Source: an uncultured Methanosarcinales archaeon | Lineage (GTDB): Archaea > Nanobdellota > Nanobdellia > Woesearchaeales > GW2011-AR9 | Assembly: GCA_964552945.1 (NCBI GenBank) | Contig: CAZKIP010000005.1 | Span: 2,643 to 66,642, forward strand | Length of the DNA stretch: 64,000 nucleotides | Reading direction: 5' to 3' | Shown here: positions 16,956 through 42,425 of the stretch, one piece after another | How the letters are laid out: every line of letters begins with the position of its first letter | How positions within the stretch are numbered: position 1 is the first letter of the stretch | Notes under the pieces: generated by a model | Told to the model about the DNA's origin: nothing | The model's input: only the letters and a program-made list of their open reading frames with translations | The model's database searches: none | Program-made: the position numbers and the translations under genes

Positions 16956-17059
16956 GGGCCTGTGGTGTAATCCGGTAGCGCGTCCGGCTGGCAGCCGGGA
17001 TGTTTCGGGATATTATGAGGTAAACTCTAAATACGAAAATTCAAATCCCGACAGGTCCA
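16956..17059 (+). tRNA. tRNA-Ala (GGC) with ~30-nt intron in the T-arm
   Basis: Acceptor GGGCCTG/CAGGTCC with G3:U70, D-arm GTGT/GCGC, anticodon stem TCCGG/CCGGG with loop CTGGCAG, TCGGG + insert + TTCAAAT CCCGA; TATA (TTAAATATTTAAAT) ~30 nt upstream. Confidence 0.7.
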
Positions 17060-17599: not shown

Positions 17600-17713
17600 C
17601 GGGGCCGCCGCGATTTGAACACGGGTTCCACGACCCCCAGCCGTGGGTGATATCTCTCACGAGAAACTCTGAATAAAAAAGTTTCCTCGCTCCAAGCTAC
17701 ACTACGGCCCCAT
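17600..17713 (-). tRNA. tRNA-Pro (GGG) with ~38-nt intron in the D-arm region
   Basis: Minus-strand read: acceptor GGGGCCG/CGGCCCC, anticodon stem CACGG/TCGTG with loop CTGGGGG, T-arm CCGTG-TTCAAAT-CGCGG, oligo-T after the 3' end; a large insert with a GGAAAC/GTTTCT hairpin interrupts the D-arm. Confidence 0.6.
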
Positions 17714-18858: not shown

Positions 18859-19473
18859 TTACAACCTCTTAAACCTTGGAACTTTTTCTCCATTAAGTTC
18901 AACATTTTCAAAAAATGTTTCTTTCGGTTTAACCCAAAGAGGATTTTTTCCAAACTCTTCAGAATCATACAACCCTCTGTAAACAACATATTCTTCTAAA
19001 GTATCACTATGAACTCCTGAATAAATTAACTCATATTTATTTCCCTTATAATGTTGAAATTTGTTTGAAAAAGGACTATATCCTTGTTTTAATAAATTAA
19101 CAATAGGTTCAAATAAAGGAGAAGGTGCATCTTCCCATGCAAACCAAGAGAACTCTTTAGTTTTATCAGGTTCCATTATTTTTACTTCTCCTGAAGCAAT
19201 TTCTCCAATCATAAAAATAGTTATGTAATGCTTATCCTCTTTTAGAAAAAAGTCGTTGGTAAGAGTTGCAAACCGGACATTTTTAAGTTCTACATCAAAT
19301 TCTTCTTTAGTTTCTCGTTTTGCACATTCTTCAAAGGTTTCATTAAATTCTAAATGTCCTCCTGGAAATGACCAAGTTCCTTCACCATGAGCTCCAATTC
19401 GTTTCTGAAAAAGAACTTTATTATCTTTAACAATAATTACTCCCACTCCTACTTTTGGCAAATTCATAACCAT
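18859..19473 (-). CDS. NUDIX hydrolase fused to a C-terminal DUF1653 domain
   Basis: Nudix box GGHLEFNETFEECAKRETKEE; C-terminal YKGNKYELIY...HSDTLEEYVVYRGLY...LWVKP...PRF matches the DUF1653 pattern. Confidence 0.7.
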   Translation of the reverse strand: MVMNLPKVGVGVIIVKDNKVLFQKRIGAHGEGTWSFPGGHLEFNETFEECAKRETKEEFDVELKNVRFATLTNDFFLKEDKHYITIFMIGEIASGEVKIMEPDKTKEFSWFAWEDAPSPLFEPIVNLLKQGYSPFSNKFQHYKGNKYELIYSGVHSDTLEEYVVYRGLYDSEEFGKNPLWVKPKETFFENVELNGEKVPRFKRL

Positions 19474-19523
19474 AATAAAAACATTTACTATAAATTAATT
19501 TCTAAACATAAGAACATAAAAAG

Positions 19524-19937
19524 TTATTCTGCCAGTTGATAATCTTCAAGACATAAATCAAGCACAGCTTTAATTTCCTGTATGCGACGTTCAAACATAG
19601 CTTTAGGATTCCTCAAATCATCTCTTTTTAATTCTCCTGAGGAAGGAATCGCTGCAACAAAAAAATTGATTTCATTATCCAAGGCTAGTAAGGATGCAGA
19701 TAAAGAAATTAGTCTATCATTTTTTCCAACCTCTTTAATTTTCTTTAGGACTTCCGCTTTAAGAATCCCAACATCACTTCGCATTGCACTAATCCTTTCC
19801 ATAGCCGTTTGTTGTGATCCTGGTTTAAAACCATTAAATAATTCAATTAAAGAAATAAAAACATTTTTGAAGTTATCACTTATAATTTTTAATCGTGCGC
19901 GTGATCCAACAAACACCATACTATTAAGAAAAAACAT
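19524..19937 (-). CDS. Hypothetical protein (gene bounded by 29-bp perfect direct repeats)
   Basis: 137-aa helical, charged ORF; the antisense ORF 19582-20001 is S/L-rich and judged spurious. Confidence 0.35.
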   Translation of the reverse strand: MFFLNSMVFVGSRARLKIISDNFKNVFISLIELFNGFKPGSQQTAMERISAMRSDVGILKAEVLKKIKEVGKNDRLISLSASLLALDNEINFFVAAIPSSGELKRDDLRNPKAMFERRIQEIKAVLDLCLEDYQLAE

Positions 19938-19958
19938 TTACTATAAATTAATTTCTAA

Positions 19959-20881
19959 TTATAATCCTTTTTTCAAAAGTTCTCCTGCCAATTCAACTTG
20001 AACCCTACAACCAGCATAAAAAGGCATTCGGTCATGTAAACCTTTTGGAACAACATCTAAAATATCCTCTACGCCATTTGTAGCCGAACCACCAGCCCTT
20101 TCAATCAAAAAAGACATAGCATGCAACTCAAACATTGGACGTAGAGTTGCCCTCTCACTACCATCTTTCATTCTACACGTAGGATATGCAAAAATGTGAT
20201 CTCCTCTTAGTAAAGCTTGGTTAATATCTGAAACTAAACAACGTGAAAATTGATCTTTATACCCTCTCCCCCTTAAATAAGAGATAAACTTTCTATGAGG
20301 TTCTGACCAGGTAGGTTCCGCCCCGCCTGAACTTAAACGTGAAGCCACTTCTCTCATTTTTACATCTTCTTTCAAAAGAGACCAATGCCAATTAGCATCT
20401 AACAAATAGCCATTTACTTTTTCACCAATATTACAAACTAAACTTGTTGCACAGCCATAAAGAATATACATAGCTGCAACCATACTCTCTCGAGGAGTAC
20501 GGCTGTCCAATAACGGCCCTTGATGTATTGAAAATATGGAACCTATAGGTCCATTATATGGAGCGTTACTACTTCCATCTAAAGGGTCATAACAGAATAT
20601 TTTCCGGAAGAACTTACATCAACTATTGAAGGACGTTCTTCAGAAGCAAATTGTATCACACCACCACATTCTCTTAAAGAATCACTTATTCTCTCATCTG
20701 CAAATATATCTAAAGAATTTTGGTGATCTCCCGAAGTGTTTGAAGTTTCCAAAGATTCTGTTCGTCTTCCATATCTTACTTCATCAGAAATTTCATCACA
20801 AGCACCAGCAATACCCATTATTAATTCAACCAAATCTGGTTCAGTTTTATTTTGAACAAGATCCGATTTAAGGGATGGCAT
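19959..20881 (-). pseudogene. fbp: Class I fructose-1,6-bisphosphatase (Fbp), disrupted by a -1 frameshift (ORFs 20579-20881 and 19959-20510)
   Basis: N-terminal piece ends ...SGKYSV; in the -1 frame it continues CYDPLDGSSN...GYxLYGxAT...FAYP...LRPMFELHAMSFLIERAGGSATNG, all class I FBPase hallmarks; shift is at a GGAAAAT homopolymer; region visibly GC-richer than flanks. Confidence 0.7.
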
Positions 20882-20921: not shown

Positions 20922-22445
20922 CTACTTTACTTCCTCTCCCACAATACTTCTTAACATATGTCCCCCAACTTTGACTTTAATTTTCTTCTTTAAGGGGATC
21001 CTTCCTTTAACTCCAATGATTAAAGGATAAGTCCCATATTGTCTACAAAAAGTTGTTTTTCCATCATACATTTCAGTGTAAACATCTTTTAAGATAGTGC
21101 CTTCAGGTAAAATTAATTTCAACATTGGAAAATCTATTTTTTGCCTTATTTCATTCCGCCATTTCCAATAGTATTTTTTATTTTTTCTAAGGAATTTGTT
21201 TCCACCATGTTTCTCTAAGAACGTATCTGGTAACACAGCTACCTGACGAACGTTAATTCTTCTCAACAATAAACCCTCATCCATAATATTTTGTAACATT
21301 TTCATATTTATCTTATGAGTTTCTTTACTCTCATTTAATAATCCAAAAATAATGTTTATCCCTGGCAAGAATTTATGCATCCCATTCTTTCCTCTAACTG
21401 CACCATACTTATTAATAATTTGAATTGCTTTATAGCCAATCAATGGAGAAGTATTTAGTAAATTTGCTTTGACAACCTCTTTATCAAAAGATTCCACCCC
21501 AAAAGCAGCAATATTTCCTGAAGTACAATATTTCACGATAGCTTTTGTGATCTCTTCCCCTCCTGCAGCTACAACAGAATTAGGATTTACATTATCAATA
21601 TGAAGTACTTCAATCTTGGGACATTTCTTGTTAATTTGTTGCAACAATTTTATTGGCTTATCAGATGCATAAAAGTCAGCTTGTTTTCCAAGACGGAAGA
21701 ACCTTGCGCCTTTCTTGTAAAATTCTTCAACTTCTCTAAGAACGTCCTCCATCTTTCGGTTAACAAATTTATTTTTCAGAGGTTCAGTACAAAAACTACA
21801 CTTTCCGACTTTACACCCTCTTCCAGTTTCAACCTCTATAACTCTCTTATCAGGAATTTGTTTAATTATTTCAGTACTTTCTTTAATGTAATCTTCAATT
21901 TCTGCAAAAGGAGCATCATAATTTTTTACTTCATCAAAAAAGCTAAGGTCTGCTTTCTCAAAGAATTTTCCACCTTCTAATTGTGTTCCAAACACAGCCG
22001 GACCGCTCAATATTTTTGGTTTCTTGATATCTTTAAGTAAAGAAGTGATCTCTTGCAAAGTTCCAGGATGTGCTGTTAAATATTTGCCTGGAACGTGAAC
22101 TCCAAGAATAACAATGATTTTTTTTGTTTTAGAGATTATTTCTTCCGCTTTGTTATTAGTTAAATTATAAACATAAATATTTGTTTTCTCTTTCTCCGTC
22201 GGTTCCTTCACTACACCTCCCTTTTGCTTCCACAACCTTACATCATCTATTGTAAGATAAGAAATATCATTCCCTTCCTTACTCAATTTTCCAAATAAAT
22301 ATCTTGGATATGTTCCCAAATAGGGGGGTACACCTAGTCCAGAAGCTTCATCTGTGTAACAATCAATAATGGTAATGTGCATGATAGAATATAATGATTC
22401 TACTTTAAGAATGTTTGGTATAATATAGAAGAAACATAACAACAA
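20922..22445 (-). CDS. B12-binding-like/radical SAM protein (COG1032-type Fe-S oxidoreductase)
   Basis: GRGCKVGKCSFC CxxxCxxC motif preceded by a Rossmann-like IIDCYTDE N-terminal domain; start probably at internal Met (MHITIIDCY). Confidence 0.55.
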   Translation of the reverse strand: MLLCFFYIIPNILKVESLYSIMHITIIDCYTDEASGLGVPPYLGTYPRYLFGKLSKEGNDISYLTIDDVRLWKQKGGVVKEPTEKEKTNIYVYNLTNNKAEEIISKTKKIIVILGVHVPGKYLTAHPGTLQEITSLLKDIKKPKILSGPAVFGTQLEGGKFFEKADLSFFDEVKNYDAPFAEIEDYIKESTEIIKQIPDKRVIEVETGRGCKVGKCSFCTEPLKNKFVNRKMEDVLREVEEFYKKGARFFRLGKQADFYASDKPIKLLQQINKKCPKIEVLHIDNVNPNSVVAAGGEEITKAIVKYCTSGNIAAFGVESFDKEVVKANLLNTSPLIGYKAIQIINKYGAVRGKNGMHKFLPGINIIFGLLNESKETHKINMKMLQNIMDEGLLLRRINVRQVAVLPDTFLEKHGGNKFLRKNKKYYWKWRNEIRQKIDFPMLKLILPEGTILKDVYTEMYDGKTTFCRQYGTYPLIIGVKGRIPLKKKIKVKVGGHMLRSIVGEEVK

Positions 22446-23429: not shown

Positions 23430-23609
23430 TGGCCCCGCCGAGACTTTCAAAACCTGAAAGGCTTGTTTTGCTCAAGCTTTTCTTAAAAGGTTATTTGAAC
23501 TCGGGACCTCACGATTTCAGTCATAACGATGTTATGATATCAGTCGTGCGCTCTTTCCTGCTTCCAAGTCTTAATAAGCCTCGAAAGTACCAGGCTAAGC
23601 CACGGGGCC
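23430..23609 (-). tRNA. tRNA-Ile (GAU) with three introns (D-loop ~34 nt, canonical 37/38 ~22 nt, T-loop/T-stem ~50 nt)
   Basis: Minus-strand read: acceptor GGCCCCG/CGGGGCC + A, D-stem GCTT/GAGC around loop AGCCTGGTA, anticodon stem CACGA/TCGTG with loop CTGATA|A and a 7-bp intron hairpin TCATAAC/GTTATGA, variable AGGTC, T-arm CCGAG-TTCAAAT-[insert]-CTCGG; 180 nt = 74 + 106. Confidence 0.65.
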
Positions 23610-23640
23610 ATAAACTCAAAGATAAAGCAGTTCTATAAAA

Positions 23641-23830
23641 AGATAACGGAAATTTTCACAATTTCCGGAATCTTTCAAAAAATCTTGTTTTTTGCTAGAT
23701 AACGGAAATCTTCTTGATTTAACGGTCTTCCAAAATCTTGTTTTTTGCTAGATAACGGAAAATATTGTATTTTCCGGGATCTTTCAAAAATGAACCATTT
23801 TTTCTAGATAGCAGAAATTTTCACAATAGC
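23641..23830. repeat. ~55-bp tandem repeat, 3.5 copies, each starting AGATAACGGAAA and containing a CGGAAA...TTTCCG-type palindrome
   Basis: Copies begin at ~23641, 23698, 23751 and 23807; lies in the divergent region between tRNA-Ile and the first surface lipoprotein gene. Confidence 0.6.
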
Positions 23831-36234: not shown

Positions 36235-36507
36235 ATGGAGCAAAAAGAGGAGAAACTATCACGAGCGATTAGTGCCTATTCTAGAAGACAAATTCTTAGA
36301 CTTCTTGCAGATAAAGAATTAACCGTAAAAGAAATTGCTGCTAAGACCAATCTTTCTGTTTCCCTTGCCTCAAGACATCTAAAATTACTATATGATCTTG
36401 GTTTTCTAACTGTAAGAAAAGAATATCCTTTCAAATATTATTCTCTTAAGATAAAAGAAATGAAAAGCTTGCTTGAAATGTACGATAAGGTAATTAAAAA
36501 AATATGA
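36235..36507 (+). CDS. ArsR-family winged-helix transcriptional regulator
   Basis: RRQILRLLADKELTVKEIAAKTNLSVSLASRHLKLL HTH typical of ArsR/SmtB; stop overlaps the next start (ATGA). Confidence 0.6.
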   Translation: MEQKEEKLSRAISAYSRRQILRLLADKELTVKEIAAKTNLSVSLASRHLKLLYDLGFLTVRKEYPFKYYSLKIKEMKSLLEMYDKVIKKI

Positions 36508-39500
36508 AAAGAAAAATAAGAAGTAAAAAAGCGGAGAAATGCCTGCACAAGGAAAGAGTTATCCTAGTAATGTTACTCTCAGCAGTACTGCTATTCTTCT
36601 TAGCAAGTAGTCCAAACTTTGGAACTAAAACTATTGTCGATTCGGTAGATTATTTTAATCAAGTTAGCTTATTTGATGGGAGTTCTATAACAGGAGCAGC
36701 CGTTATTGGCATATCTAGTACCGACAATGACGATGATTTAGGAACTTTTGTTGATGATTTTGCTGATGGGATAAGTAATACTTCAAGATGGTTCAATCAT
36801 ACAACTAGAATGACCATACATCATGAAAATGAATTGATGAGATTTAATGCCTCATTAGCTTCAACTGAAGGAAACGCATCAATTATAACTATAGAGAATT
36901 TGTCTATGCATTCATTTAATATAACTGCAAATGTAACCTTACAAAATACATCAGATAGTCTTTCTACTGATGCATTGGCAACAATAGAATTAAGTTTATT
37001 TAACCAAACTAACCTTTCTCAAACCACAACATGTTCAGTAAATTTAGAAGAATCCTCAGGTGGAGCATATTATTTATATTTCGGAAACTCCACCACAAGT
37101 AATCCACCTCCAACAATTATTAATGCAGAAATGGCAAATATTGGAGATAATTTGACAGGACTCCTGAGAATGGAGTATATTAATGACACTGAAACAATCA
37201 ATTGTACTTTTACCACTGGATTTGATTCTTACTCTGTCAAAGGTGTTACTAAAGACATAGGACAAGATTTTGGAGCAGGCATTTTATCACAATTAACTAC
37301 TCAAGGAGGTGCCGCTTCAGGTGATGTGAATGCCACAATTGCGTCATTTAATTATAGTTTGGCTCCAGTTGCAAGTGCAAATAACGAACCTACCTCTACC
37401 ATCCTTCTAAACACAACAGATTTAACAGCAAACGATACCAATCAAAACTTAACAGCTTATTCAGAGACAAGTGATTTAGACAATGATGATGTATTTGTTG
37501 TTTACAATTGGTTATTAAATGGTTCATCTGTGATGGTCCTAAACATGCCTTTCTTGCCAAATGACAATAATGAAAGTGCTTCTACCCACAACTATGCTCT
37601 TGGTGATAATGGAAATAATACAGGAGGGGCATCATGGAACTCCACAGGAGGTTTTGATTTCAATGGCAGCTATGAATTTGATAGTATCGATGATTATCTT
37701 TCTTTAGAAAATTCCGGCCAATATGAACCTACCATGAATTTTAGCATAGAAGCATGGGTTTATGTAAAAGGCAGTGGAAACAACGGAGGACAAAATGGAA
37801 TCGTTAATAAAGACGGAGGGTTCAACGATGGTTTTAATTTTGCGATTGGTGATTCTTCTGCCCCAACAGTAAATTTTGGAACTGGAGATTCTGGAGCCAG
37901 TGACATTGAAACAATCACAGAATTAAATCTCAACGAATGGACCCATGTTGTTGCTTCATATAATGGAAGTAATACTTCAATTTACATCAATGGCGCGTTA
38001 GACTTTGTTGGTACAAGAACTGGTGCTTTAGCCTATAGTACAGGCGATTTAGAAATAGGAAGAAATAGGGATACACCACCCGGACAGGAAGGATATTTCA
38101 ATGGTTCCATTGACAACGTTAGAATTTGGAATATAACTTTAACCCCTGAACAAATTTCTGCTCTTTACAAAAATAGAACAGACCTAATCGTTTCACAAGA
38201 ATTAAGTGTAGGAGATAATTGGACAGTAGATGTAACTCCAAACGATGGAGTTCTTGATGGAGCAATTAATAGATCTAACGATTTGTTGGTGTTAGATGTT
38301 ACTGCACCAGCAGCCAACAATGACCCTACCTCTACCATCCTTCTAAACACAACAGATTTAACTAAAAATGATACCAATCAAAACTTAACAGCTTATGTAG
38401 ACACAAGTGATTTAGATGCTGATACAGTAAACGTTGTTTACAACTGGTTATTAAATGGTTCATCTGTGATGGTCCTAAATATGCCTTTCCTACCAAATGA
38501 TGGAAATGAAACTGCTTCTACCCACAACTATGCTCTTGGAGATAATGGAAATGTTACTGGTGCTACATGGAATTCTACAGGTGGTTTTGATTTCAATGGC
38601 AGTTATGAATTTGATAGTGTTGATGATTACATTTCTATAAGAGATAGAAGTGAGTTTGAATTAACCTCAAATATAACAATAGAAGCGTGGTTCTATTTGA
38701 AAGGCAATGGGAGCACAGGGATTAGTGGTCTTTTAAATAAAGATGGTGGGTTTGGCAATGGATTTGATATTGAATTAGGAACTGATGATCTTTTGAATGT
38801 AGCTTTCAACACCGGAGATTTTGGATCAACAACTTTAGAAACTGCTGCAAACGCAATTTCTCTTAACAGATGGACCCATTTGGTAATAATGTATAATGGA
38901 AGCAATACTTCTATTTATATTGATGGCGCTTTAAATGTAGTTGGTACGAAAACTGGCGCATTAACTTACAGCACTGGAGATTTAGAGATAGGTAGGGCAA
39001 TTAACTCCAGTGGACAAGAGGGTTATTTCAATGGTTCCATAGATAACGTTAGAATTTGGAATAGAACTTTAACCCCTGAACAAATTTCTGCACTCTACAA
39101 AAACAGGACAGATTTAATAGTTTCTCAAGAATTGAATGTAGGAGATAATTGGACAGTAGATGTAACTCCAAACGATGGAGTTCTTGATGGAGCAATTAAT
39201 AGATCTAACGATTTGTTGGTGTTAGACATAGTTGCAGCTGCTCCTAGTTGTGGAACTCTTACTTCTAATACTACTTTAACAGAGGACATTAATTCTACTG
39301 AAACATGTTTCACTATTGGTGCTCATGGAATTACTTTAGATTGTGATAATTATTTAATCAACTATTCCACAGAAGGTAGCGGAAATGGAATAGATAATAC
39401 AGGATATCACAACGTAACAATTAAAGATTGTAGGATTGAACAATACGGAAATACAGGAGAAGCAATTCTATGGGATGACGCTAGAAGTGGTAAATTAATT

Positions 39501-42425
39501 AACAACACCATTATAACTTACACTGCAACATCGCCAGCAATTTTTATACCTCCAAATTCCAATAATACTTATATCACAAAAAACAACCTAACTACAAAAG
39601 ATAACTCTTATGCCCTAGATGTTGTTGGAAGAGACAACAACATTACAAATAATACCTTTTTATCAACTAATTCAGCTGGGATAAGAGTTGTTTATGCTCA
39701 AGGGGTGAAGAATTTATTCAAAAACAATTTCATCCAAGGATATCCTTTTGGTTCCATTGGAATTGATGTAAACAACCTCAATAATACTTTTTTAAACAAT
39801 ACAATAATCATGAATAGTTCTTCATCATGGGGAGTTCGTATTACAGATGGTAACTACACTCATCTTGAAAACAATACAATAAATGTAACAGGAGCAACAA
39901 GCTATGGGATATATCTTTCTGATAGTTCTGAAAGAAACTCTTTAATTAACAATCTTCTAGAAACTAATTCCTCAGATTCATTTTCAATTTTCGATGAAAC
40001 TGATGACAATAAAATAAATTATATGAGTTACATTAACGCATCAAGCAAAATTGAATGGGTGGATAATGGATCAAGAAGTTTCTTAAGAAATTTAACTTTT
40101 AATGGGACCATTGGTCCAAATACAAACATTTATTTAGGAAATGGAACCGTAGCTGTCGATACATCGGCATTTGACAATGGAAAAATTAATTCTACTGTCA
40201 ACATTACTTTTTATGGATTAGATTTAGAATTTGCAGATGCAGTTATCAAAATCCATAGTTTTAGCACAGATGGTGTAACCATAGATAGTTCAGGTTCAGA
40301 TTGTGTAGGAGATTCTTGTGAGATTATTAGTTACACTGGAGGGACTTTAAGATTCAATAGTACATCATTGGGAAGTTTATTTGCAAACAACTCAGAGGAT
40401 TTAACTCCACCAAATGTAACCATCCTAACTCCAATAAACACAAGTAATTTTTCAAAAACATCTAGTAATCAAACATTTAACGTAAGTATTAATGAGGCTA
40501 ATATTTATGGGGTATTATTCATTTTTGATAATGGTTCTGGAGTAGATTTCAACATTACAGCAAATAACAATTCGGGATATTGGGCTGCACCATACAACGT
40601 TTCCACTTTGGCAGAAGGAACACAAACAGTTAGAGTGTCTGCAAATGATACGGCAGGAAACATAAATAGTACACAACAGGTTACAATTACAACAGATTAT
40701 ACAGCCCCAAATGTAACTATCATCTCACCAACTAACAGAAGCAATTACTCCTTTACTTCAAGCAATCAAACGTTCAACACATCAGTATTTGATGCAAACA
40801 TCAAAACAGTCTGGTTCTCATTTGATAATGGAACGGGAACAGATTTTAACATTACAGCAAATAATAACTCTGGGTATTGGGCTGCACCATACAATGTATC
40901 AACACTAGCAGAAGGAACACAAACAATAACGATTATAGCAAACGATTCAGCAGGAAATGTAAACACAACACAAAGCATTACAATAACAACTGATTACACT
41001 GTACCTGTAGTTAACATCACATTCCCAACTAACGGAACCAATTTCAGCATTGGATCTTATAATCAAACTTTCAATGTAAGTATCCAAGAAAGAGACATAG
41101 GAACTGTCTTATTTAATTTTGATAATTCATCCGGAACAGGATTCAACCTTACTCCAACAAATCAATCAGGATATTGGGTAGCTAGTTACAATGTTTCAAA
41201 GCTAGCAAATGGAACACACCTATTAACAATTTTAGTTAACGACACTGTAAACAATAAAAATAATACGCAAACAATAAATTTCACTTTTGATAATAGAACA
41301 ATGCCTGTCGCTCCTGCCCCTGCAGGTGCAGGAAATACAGGAAGTAGTGGAGGAGGAGGTTCAAGTTCCTCCTCTGATTCAGGAGGGGGAGGGTCCCTTC
41401 CAATAAAAGAACCCGCTCCTAAATCGGTTGCCCCTGAAGATTTTGAAAAATCAGAAAAAGATGTTGTAGAAGAAAAAGTAGAAAAAGAAGATTCAAGTGA
41501 ACAAGTAGATTCAAAAGGAGTAGCCGCAACTACTATAAAAGCCCTTAAATCTGCCAAGTCTACTTTTAGCGCAACTGGGAAAGCATTTTTCTCTGGAGAA
41601 TTTTTATTAGATATGTCTGGGGTTTGGATTCTATTAATCTCCCTAATGTTACTTTCTGTATTGTTATTATTTGTTACCTTTAGACACAAGAAGCGCTTTA
41701 TCCCTTATTATGTTTCAGATTATCCCTCTCCAGAATTACAAGTTGAAAGAACCAGCCATTTACGCCAATTAAGATCACAAGTAAGAAATGCGGGTGCTGG
41801 AGTTAAGAGAGAAATTAGTTCTTTATTAGCTAAAGGAAGAATTCATCAAACTTCTTTGAAATGGCTACAGAATTGGGTCGAAACGATGCAAGGCAAAGGA
41901 GATTCGGAAGCTAAAATAAAGAGCTTATTACAACATAATCCTAATGTGACCCCTCAGATGATTAAAGTGGTTTTAGATAGAATAAAAGCTAAAAAGTTAT
42001 TGCAGAAGAAATATTCTCTATCCTTAAAAGAATTAGAGAAAATTGAAAAAGTGGTACTTAAGTTAGTTAAAAAAGGAAAAACCATCTCTGAGATAAAATC
42101 TATCTTCTCTGAAAATGGGTGGGATTCTTCAATCCTAGGTCCTTTTATTGAAGCATATTCCAAACTAGTACGTAAAAGAAAATTTGTTGCTTATGGTGCA
42201 CTTCAAATTTCACAAAAATTAGCAAGAAAAATGGTCAAAAAAACTCACAATTTATCTTCCATCGAGATAAAACAATTAGAATCTTTCATTGACGATTGTT
42301 ATAATAGAAACATTCCTATGGGGGAAGTAGTTGATGGTTTGGTTGAAAGTGGATGGACTTACAAGGAGATTGATTCATTGGTTAGAATACGTTATCGGAT
42401 GGGCCTTTATAATGTTGTCCTATGA
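36504..42425 (+). CDS. Giant (1973 aa) cell-surface protein: signal/TM, two LamG-like domains, right-handed beta-helix region, three Ig-like repeats, G/S/P linker, TM anchor and ~270-aa cytoplasmic tail; extremely rich in N-x-S/T sequons
   Basis: LamG signatures (W.HV...YNG.N.SIYING...GYFNGSIDNVRIWN) twice; NNTI/NNLT beta-helix repeats; three ~95-aa repeats (P.NVTI..P.N.SN.S....NQTFN ... SGYWAAPYNVSTLAEGTQT); C-terminal TM VWILLISLMLLSVLLLFVTF. Confidence 0.7.
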   Translation: MKRKIRSKKAEKCLHKERVILVMLLSAVLLFFLASSPNFGTKTIVDSVDYFNQVSLFDGSSITGAAVIGISSTDNDDDLGTFVDDFADGISNTSRWFNHTTRMTIHHENELMRFNASLASTEGNASIITIENLSMHSFNITANVTLQNTSDSLSTDALATIELSLFNQTNLSQTTTCSVNLEESSGGAYYLYFGNSTTSNPPPTIINAEMANIGDNLTGLLRMEYINDTETINCTFTTGFDSYSVKGVTKDIGQDFGAGILSQLTTQGGAASGDVNATIASFNYSLAPVASANNEPTSTILLNTTDLTANDTNQNLTAYSETSDLDNDDVFVVYNWLLNGSSVMVLNMPFLPNDNNESASTHNYALGDNGNNTGGASWNSTGGFDFNGSYEFDSIDDYLSLENSGQYEPTMNFSIEAWVYVKGSGNNGGQNGIVNKDGGFNDGFNFAIGDSSAPTVNFGTGDSGASDIETITELNLNEWTHVVASYNGSNTSIYINGALDFVGTRTGALAYSTGDLEIGRNRDTPPGQEGYFNGSIDNVRIWNITLTPEQISALYKNRTDLIVSQELSVGDNWTVDVTPNDGVLDGAINRSNDLLVLDVTAPAANNDPTSTILLNTTDLTKNDTNQNLTAYVDTSDLDADTVNVVYNWLLNGSSVMVLNMPFLPNDGNETASTHNYALGDNGNVTGATWNSTGGFDFNGSYEFDSVDDYISIRDRSEFELTSNITIEAWFYLKGNGSTGISGLLNKDGGFGNGFDIELGTDDLLNVAFNTGDFGSTTLETAANAISLNRWTHLVIMYNGSNTSIYIDGALNVVGTKTGALTYSTGDLEIGRAINSSGQEGYFNGSIDNVRIWNRTLTPEQISALYKNRTDLIVSQELNVGDNWTVDVTPNDGVLDGAINRSNDLLVLDIVAAAPSCGTLTSNTTLTEDINSTETCFTIGAHGITLDCDNYLINYSTEGSGNGIDNTGYHNVTIKDCRIEQYGNTGEAILWDDARSGKLINNTIITYTATSPAIFIPPNSNNTYITKNNLTTKDNSYALDVVGRDNNITNNTFLSTNSAGIRVVYAQGVKNLFKNNFIQGYPFGSIGIDVNNLNNTFLNNTIIMNSSSSWGVRITDGNYTHLENNTINVTGATSYGIYLSDSSERNSLINNLLETNSSDSFSIFDETDDNKINYMSYINASSKIEWVDNGSRSFLRNLTFNGTIGPNTNIYLGNGTVAVDTSAFDNGKINSTVNITFYGLDLEFADAVIKIHSFSTDGVTIDSSGSDCVGDSCEIISYTGGTLRFNSTSLGSLFANNSEDLTPPNVTILTPINTSNFSKTSSNQTFNVSINEANIYGVLFIFDNGSGVDFNITANNNSGYWAAPYNVSTLAEGTQTVRVSANDTAGNINSTQQVTITTDYTAPNVTIISPTNRSNYSFTSSNQTFNTSVFDANIKTVWFSFDNGTGTDFNITANNNSGYWAAPYNVSTLAEGTQTITIIANDSAGNVNTTQSITITTDYTVPVVNITFPTNGTNFSIGSYNQTFNVSIQERDIGTVLFNFDNSSGTGFNLTPTNQSGYWVASYNVSKLANGTHLLTILVNDTVNNKNNTQTINFTFDNRTMPVAPAPAGAGNTGSSGGGGSSSSSDSGGGGSLPIKEPAPKSVAPEDFEKSEKDVVEEKVEKEDSSEQVDSKGVAATTIKALKSAKSTFSATGKAFFSGEFLLDMSGVWILLISLMLLSVLLLFVTFRHKKRFIPYYVSDYPSPELQVERTSHLRQLRSQVRNAGAGVKREISSLLAKGRIHQTSLKWLQNWVETMQGKGDSEAKIKSLLQHNPNVTPQMIKVVLDRIKAKKLLQKKYSLSLKELEKIEKVVLKLVKKGKTISEIKSIFSENGWDSSILGPFIEAYSKLVRKRKFVAYGALQISQKLARKMVKKTHNLSSIEIKQLESFIDDCYNRNIPMGEVVDGLVESGWTYKEIDSLVRIRYRMGLYNVVL
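37385..39236 (+). repeat. Near-identical ~930-bp tandem duplication inside the giant surface-protein gene (copy 1 ~37385-38315, copy 2 ~38323-39236)
   Basis: Long stretches identical between copies (e.g. 38190-38300 vs 39128-39236); also shown by identical antisense ORF peptides at 38165-38377 and 39125-39313. Confidence 0.75.

Follow-up and report, generated by a model that had tools for sequence, protein, structure and literature searches.

A small gene of an uncultured archaeon, here called hyp, lies between the genes for a class I fructose-1,6-bisphosphatase (fbp) and a NUDIX::DUF1653 fusion protein, and is flanked by two identical 29-bp direct repeats. The window referred to throughout is the whole stretch of 64,000 nucleotides that was analysed, and all positions are those of the window. 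We consider it likely that the NUDIX promoter was duplicated in an old local event, that the duplicate now drives a chimeric hyp gene and the parent copy drives NUDIX, and that the two copies were homogenised later.

The repeat AAAAACATTTACTATAAATTAATTTCTAA, which reads TTAGAAATTAATTTATAGTAAATGTTTTT on the minus strand, is present as an exact match at 19477-19505 (copy A) and 19930-19958 (copy B), just as the sequence-only reading of this DNA had described. The chance expectation for such a pair is 0 matches (100 shuffles). In the 64-kb window there is no third site with three or fewer mismatches, and beyond the pair no site on either strand matches at more than 20 of the 29 positions. Many copies, as expected of a generic promoter motif, had been named as the observation that would speak against an insertion scar, and they are absent from the 64 kb searched. 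The repeat lengthens to 35 nt at 33/35 identities. The two copies are separated by a spacer of 424 bp and have a period of 453 bp, which corrects the insert of 425 bp and the unit of 454 bp given earlier. The JGI, Logan and ENA metagenome assemblies contain six contigs with 100% identity to the window, and both copies of the repeat are found in all of the identical contigs that are long enough (4/4, from independent assemblies). Because the independent JGI, Logan and ENA assemblies agree, the repeat is real, and an assembly artefact as its source can be ruled out.

The window has a G+C content of 33% and contains an intron-bearing tRNA, and among genome records its NUDIX gene has its nearest counterparts in Woesearchaeota/Nanoarchaeota metagenome-assembled genomes. 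The intron-containing tRNA and these nearest genomes indicate that the host is a DPANN archaeon (Woesearchaeota-like). TTTATA-like boxes recur upstream of the genes in the window, and in 37 of 60 genes a TATA-like hexamer begins 27-31 nt ahead of the ATG, giving a sharp peak. In archaea, the centre of the TATA box is found about 27 nt, and that of the BRE about 33 nt, ahead of the transcription start (PMC5316973). The distance from hexamer to ATG thus suggests that most mRNAs in this genome are leaderless or nearly so. In copy B (minus strand), which starts directly after the fbp stop codon, TTTATA (19947-19942) begins 28 nt ahead of the hyp ATG at 19919, inside the 27-31 nt peak. In copy A (minus strand), TTTATA (19494-19489) begins 27 nt ahead of the NUDIX ATG at 19467 and only 21 nt from another ATG at 19473. 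The 8-bp AT-rich TATA element of the repeat is ATTTATAG with a BRE-like AGAAA before it and, at the sequence level, the two copies and the NUDIX promoter of the relative L009 all have the purine-rich AGAAATTAA ahead of TTTATAG. Since TTTATA stands in the standard position, each copy is the predicted BRE/TATA promoter of its own gene, copy B of hyp and copy A of NUDIX::DUF1653, with start sites placed by spacing and conservation. It is worth noting that the BRE/TATA part is near-palindromic (halves TAGAAATT and AATTTATA) at 19489-19504 and 19942-19957, and that a TATA-like box also points the opposite way. In copy A this opposite-facing box could give antisense transcription into hyp, or could have an operator role.

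The start codons of the two genes are related to the repeat in a different way from that first proposed. The sequence-only reading let copy B supply the ATG of the enclosed gene. That ATG (19937) is only 11 nt from the TATA box, its counterpart in copy A is out of frame with NUDIX, and it is very unlikely to be the true hyp start. The conserved start is the ATG at 19919, 10 nt beyond the repeat, which is backed by a 131-aa gene call from JGI (P0001) and by an aligned methionine that opens the ortholog P0002. The same reading was right to see the NUDIX promoter in copy A, but the repeat does not reach the start codon: 3 nt separate its end from the first NUDIX ATG, and 9 nt from the second. The NUDIX::DUF1653 gene (18859-19467, minus strand; Pfam PF00293 and PF07866) encodes 202 aa from the ATG at 19467, and its orthologs are 202-203 aa long; 19467 is probably the start, with 19473 as an alternative. 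That copy B abuts the fbp stop codon is confirmed by a TAA at 19961-19959.

Relatives of the host help to tell parent from duplicate. The core of the NUDIX promoter is AGAAATTAATTTATAGTA in the window, AGAAATTAATTTAAAGTA in L009 and AGTAATTAATTTATATTA in L007, the closest relative, and TTTATAGTT is kept ahead of NUDIX in L088 and L092. As the same core stands ahead of NUDIX in L009 and L007, copy A is the conserved, ancestral NUDIX promoter. When 145 ATG-anchored promoters were compared, with a background of 18.4 +/- 2.9 identities of 42, the top matches of the window hyp promoter were the L007 hyp promoter (30 of 42) and the NUDIX promoters of L009 and L007 (28 each). The L007 hyp promoter has as its own top match the NUDIX promoter of L099 (26), and four further NUDIX promoters are among the ties at 24. 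From these alignments the hyp promoter can be assigned as a paralog of the NUDIX promoter in both the window and L007 lineages. The earlier suggestion of a promoter-carrying duplication has held up in this respect, with copy A as the NUDIX promoter and with L092 showing fbp, promoter and NUDIX in a row without an intervening gene.

The homology between the two sites runs on beyond the promoter. Going outward, the identical core (29/29) is followed by 4/6 identities, by an unalignable patch of 7-10 nt, and then by a collinear in-frame block of 16/19 (19519-19537 against 19975-19993) just upstream of both copies. Homology is therefore collinear past the identical core and decays with distance, as is found in duplicated segments. 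Local-alignment controls that did not require collinearity gave p of about 0.001-0.002 for this 16/19 block, which is short and lies within AT-rich DNA. On the side of copy B the distal part of the duplicated segment is the native fbp 3' end (19959-19993, minus strand, ending in ..VELAGELLKKGL and a stop). On the side of copy A it is a putative relic of the duplicated fbp 3' end (19506-19537, minus strand), in the same frame and collinear with the 29-mer. This relic gives hyp its final QLAE and stop, and is followed by a degenerate remainder, CTTTTTATGTTCTTATGT, with a T5 run. The two tails, ..ELAGELLKKGL for fbp and ..(EDY)QLAE for hyp, each followed by a stop, are in the same frame. The fbp tail of the window is native, because the FBPase of L092 has a homologous tail (IEMARTHLRV and a stop). 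The in-frame block together with the native fbp tail indicates a duplicated segment of about 64 nt or more, which as aligned consists of the last ~8 fbp codons, the stop codon and the NUDIX promoter. The last four codons of hyp and its stop are, on the same alignment, derived from the duplicated fbp tail.

The fbp gene itself (19959-20881, minus strand) has its Pfam matches, PF00316 and PF18913, on two ORFs, with a -1 frameshift near 20577-20592. Within 20570-20600 the sequence has GTTAT where the conserved ..SV(A)YDPLDGSSN.. requires GTTTAT. Three independent metagenome contigs stop at this frameshift, L001 and L003 at 20592 and L002 at 20582. These contig ends may reflect variation between strains or a branch in the assembly graph, or the gene may be a real pseudogene. 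A look-up for the product of the N-terminal 100-aa ORF of fbp found no record.

The radical-SAM, NUDIX, redoxin and YdjM genes around the locus are syntenic in relatives, with 57-86% identity wherever they are present. The slot between radical-SAM and NUDIX holds fbp and hyp in the window, and in L007 a 136-aa gene, a 107-aa gene on the opposite strand and hyp. In L092 it holds only fbp, which encodes an intact FBPase and whose stop abuts the NUDIX promoter; hyp is absent, so that the comparison of related genomes proposed with the sequence-only reading does reveal a locus without the gene. L088 has an unrelated 130-aa gene, L009 a 516-aa gene and a separate DUF1653, and L096, L097 and L087 have nothing in the slot. 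The region after the radical-SAM gene (window 20922-22445 to 18859) varies in nearly every relative (L007, L009, L088, L092, L096, L097, L100 and L101). Its contents across relatives also include a DUF4258 toxin-like gene together with a 109-aa gene, or the family of ~490-aa proteins, and the 516-aa protein of L009 is acidic. This slot downstream of radical-SAM is a local hotspot of gene turnover. Two candidates were considered and rejected: the 130-aa slot gene of L088 has no similarity to hyp and is not its ortholog, and P0004 (354 aa), taken as a possible hyp-NUDIX fusion, is a NUDIX-NUDIX-DUF1653 protein.

The age of the event can be judged from L007. Its hyp gene has the junction seen in the window, ending in QLA and a stop, and the spacer behind it is homologous. 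Since this junction is common to both, the chimeric gene and the duplication predate the split between the window and L007. An insertion that is recent, as had been proposed, does not agree with L007, which has this gene and this junction at a dS of 0.64-1.0. The ancestor appears to have had fbp adjacent, as L092 still does. The fbp of the window is only 40-55% identical to that of L092, and positional orthology of the two is plausible.

The hyp gene (19524-19919, minus strand) encodes 131 aa, a predicted four-helix bundle with a 4-residue fbp-derived tail. Compared with its L007 ortholog it has 75% amino acid identity, a dN/dS of 0.22 and a dS of 0.64; the corresponding values for NUDIX are a dN/dS of 0.15 and a dS of 1.0. 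The dN/dS of 0.22 indicates that hyp is a real gene under purifying selection. Among 5.8 billion proteins it has two close relatives, P0001 (identical to the window) and P0002 (75%), both at this locus. Neither hyp nor the ~490-aa full-length family described below has a Pfam or NCBIfam match. The AlphaFold2 model of hyp is a four-helix bundle with a pLDDT of 84.5, and a fold search of the PDB returned only generic four-helix bundles (sensor domains and designed bundles) with E > 0.06, giving no functional lead. A profile search of 1.84 billion representatives gave 15 matches at E <= 0.001. They include the ortholog P0002 as well as P0134 and P0135, which match in multiple stretches and in internal regions; the remaining matches (six of 468-505 aa and six that are shorter) align over their N-terminal ~80-136 residues. 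Residues 1-127 of hyp match the N-terminus of proteins of 465-505 aa with E values from 7e-14 to 1e-3, and homology to the family extends up to residue ~127 (EDY), with the fbp-derived tail starting at exactly this point. The N-terminal four-helix domain of this family (MVFVGSR..FK.VW..FN..F) is recognised in hyp by profile, alignment and AlphaFold2 model. The hyp protein ends before the TM segment, and the C-terminal domain (GLAILISY..ELAFGQKA..FGHGSW..RHTCG..GWGR) is missing from it; tblastn found no C-terminal remnant of the family in the window or in L007. Taken from these comparisons, hyp is a domain-only derivative of the ~490-aa membrane-protein family and not a full member.

In L100, L101 and L102, the gene that directly follows the radical-SAM ortholog encodes a full-length member of the family. 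This family of ~465-505 aa (for instance P0123, L100 5001-6482, and P0137, L101 5001-6458) has been seen so far only in Woesearchaeota-like contigs. Its layout is an N-terminal four-helix domain, one TM segment and a conserved C-terminal domain, in which GLAILISY, ELAFGQKA, FGHGSW, RHTCG and GWGR are the motifs. Profile searches found no relatives of hyp in JGI metagenome contigs or IMG/VR viral contigs.

Because the duplication predates the L007 split, the present 29/29 identity of the two copies must be secondary. Orthologous promoters of the window and L007 differ at 5/29 positions (NUDIX) and 8/29 positions (hyp). The paralogous promoters differ at 9/29 positions in L007 and at 0/29 in the window. 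At the orthologous rate of divergence, the probability of finding no differences without homogenisation is about (24/29)^29 = 0.004. Both window copies read T, A and A at repeat positions 1, 21 and 22, where the NUDIX promoters of L007 and L009 have A, G and T. The paralogs within this genome thus share derived states that the orthologs lack, as is expected from gene conversion, with L007 and L009 as the only two outgroups. The window-specific T, A and A in both copies point to copying between the promoters after the window/L007 split. The best reading is an old duplication, probably followed in the window lineage by a recent event in which the promoter tract was re-copied or underwent short-patch gene conversion.

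The likely course of events would then be as follows. The ancestral order would have been radical-SAM, fbp, promoter and NUDIX, as L092 retains. A single old rearrangement would have put ~127 codons from the start of a ~490-aa gene between two copies of the segment, the fragment gaining a promoter on its 5' side and an in-frame tail and stop on its 3' side from the duplicated fbp end, with NUDIX retaining a promoter of its own (copy A). Copy B would start a leaderless or near-leaderless hyp mRNA, and copy A a separate NUDIX::DUF1653 mRNA. The chimeric hyp would thereafter have been under purifying selection, and the NUDIX promoter would later have been re-copied or converted in a short patch within the window lineage. 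There are two possible routes to this arrangement: a gene fragment may have been inserted between duplicated copies of the fbp tail and promoter, or a local tandem duplication may have been followed by deletions. The second route is also allowed because full-length family genes are found near radical-SAM in relatives, and it would also account for a radical-SAM-linked gene fragment at this site. Oligo-T tracts terminate transcripts in archaea, and T5/T6 runs at this locus (CTTTTT behind the hyp stop, and TGTTTTT(T) within the repeat and beyond it) may help to end upstream transcripts.

Other explanations have been considered. One is that the unit is a recent small mobile or excisable cassette, in which the 29-mer is a target-site duplication or a recombination site; the sequence-only reading had raised both a small mobile unit and an excision-capable cassette. 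Direct repeats do flank a single-ORF unit, and L092 has an 'empty' fbp-promoter-NUDIX arrangement that recombination between the repeats would restore exactly. However, an inverted-repeat scan of 19440-19995 found no terminal inverted repeats, only the promoter near-palindrome and weak internal pairs. There is no transposase, integrase or other recombinase in or near the unit, where the four-helix-bundle fragment is the sole ORF and fbp, NUDIX and redoxin are the neighbours. The wider search for more copies that had been proposed came back empty: neither the 29-mer core nor the ORF has a further copy in the window, GTDB genomes, JGI metagenome contigs or viral contigs. A 22-mer core has 0 exact matches in GTDB genomes and JGI metagenome contigs (collections without the source genome), and the 64-kb window has only this one pair. 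Without inverted repeats, transposase or other copies, the unit does not qualify as a mobile cassette. Also against a cassette, L007, at dS 0.64-1.0, has hyp in this position and with this junction, the family of the ORF is syntenic with the adjacent radical-SAM gene, the partly diverged segment of ~64 nt or more far exceeds the target duplications made by transposases, and the unit is present in all six population contigs, none of which is an excised variant. We regard a cassette as extremely unlikely. Less improbable, but still unlikely, is that the 29-35 bp promoter duplication is recent and separate from the origin of hyp, so that in the window lineage a rearrangement put fbp before hyp, a fresh copy of the NUDIX promoter took the place of an older hyp promoter, and the 16/19 block is a coincidence. 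The region upstream of hyp is indeed fbp in the window and the 136-aa and 107-aa genes in L007, which means that one lineage was rearranged exactly at the hyp promoter, and the low identity of fbp to its L092 counterpart (40-55%) fits with such a replacement. Against it stands the in-frame tail match of 16/19, with its p of about 0.001-0.002, and the counterpart QLA and stop in L007, which together indicate that hyp originated with fbp already beside it. In addition, the hyp 5' flank beyond the repeat (TTTCTTAATAGTATG) is still like the L007 hyp flank (TTTCTTTAAAATATG).

A further possibility concerns only the identity of the copies. Selection alone might have fixed both promoters, for example if the near-palindromic TAGAAATTAATTTATA is the operator of a shared regulator, which would make conversion unnecessary. 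Conservation of the NUDIX promoter core in L009, L007 and the window is unusually high, the BRE/TATA part is near-palindromic, and co-regulation of adjacent genes is plausible. But the differences between orthologous promoters (5-8 of 29) and between the L007 paralogs (9/29) show that selection does not freeze the promoter sequence, and the three shared window-specific bases, of which positions 21-22 are outside the palindrome, would require parallel substitutions. Selection as the whole cause is doubtful on this evidence; a shared operator under selection may have contributed. We are similarly sceptical of a stronger version of co-regulation, in which the identical promoter pair is a maintained device with repeated conversion, and in which precise, repeat-mediated loss of hyp would restore fbp-promoter-NUDIX. 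If this were true, the locus would be a promoter-bounded, deletable gene slot in a reduced DPANN genome, placed between radical-SAM and NUDIX where each of the relatives examined has a different content.

The favoured history of duplication and later homogenisation can be compared with known systems. The two copies resemble archaeal leaderless BRE/TATA promoters in their 8-bp TATA element, their purine-rich BRE and a distance of 27-28 nt to an ATG that coincides with the predicted start or lies close to it. Between different genes, ordinary promoters have only a consensus of ~8-14 nt in common, whereas the pair in the window is identical at 29/29 (33/35) and its homology extends to the coding tail upstream. 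Collinear copies, here 453 bp apart, that are identical in the proximal part and diverged in the distal part are also a feature of segmental or tandem duplication with gene conversion. As in concerted evolution, both window copies have lineage-specific derived bases, and the paralogs have diverged in the sister lineage L007. Unlike in usual gene conversion, the converted tract would be a promoter of ~30 nt and not a gene, and unlike in usual segmental duplication, the copies enclose a chimeric gene fragment and not a duplicate of a neighbour. The target-site duplications of transposable elements and MITEs are similar in that direct repeats flank a short insert that is missing from the homologous site of relatives. 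They differ in that there are no inverted repeats and no transposase here, the unit is single-copy, the repeat of 29 to ~64 nt is far above typical target duplications, and the insert is a conserved, selected coding fragment present in a relative at dS 0.64-1.0. The closest parallel in gene structure is with chimeric genes from partial duplication, where an N-terminal fragment captures a promoter and a stop nearby and is kept by selection (dN/dS 0.22 here). In contrast to other chimeric genes, the promoter would be a duplicate of that of the downstream gene, the stop would come from the duplicated tail of the upstream gene, and the genome is a reduced DPANN genome.

Several other features of the window were recorded. 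An intergenic tandem array of a 56-bp unit (3.4 copies) is found at 23641-23827. Its units have a short hairpin, perfect in the first unit (CGGAAATTTTCACAATTTCCG), followed by TCTTTCAAAAA or TCTTGTTTTTTGCT; candidate functions are that of a protein-binding array and that of origin-like repeats. At ~23430-23625 on the minus strand, a G+C-rich stretch has an archaeal-tRNA-like 5' end (GGCCCCGTGGCTTAGCCTGGTA...), a long insert and the end ..GGTCCCGAGTTCAAATAACC. This is probably an intron-containing tRNA that was missed by ARAGORN and by Rfam at the gathering threshold. The only tRNA reported by ARAGORN is a tRNA-Pro at 17601-17669, and a 104-nt tRNA match at 16956-17059, found with Rfam only, fits an intron-bearing archaeal tRNA. 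A 1973-aa ORF at 36504-42425 has internal repeats of ~930 nt at 74-90% identity and a further pair of 297-nt repeats; its product is probably a large repetitive surface protein.

For annotation, the analysis places the start of hyp at 19919 and that of NUDIX, probably, at 19467. The processes that would be at work are those of ordinary genome evolution, namely promoter duplication, the birth of a chimeric gene and concerted evolution, and call for no new kind of mobile element or regulatory system. The locus offers sequence-level evidence for the concerted evolution of a promoter tract of ~30 nt in an uncultured DPANN archaeon. It would also be a traceable case of how, in a streamlined archaeal genome, a gene fragment became a selected gene that is predicted to be expressed.
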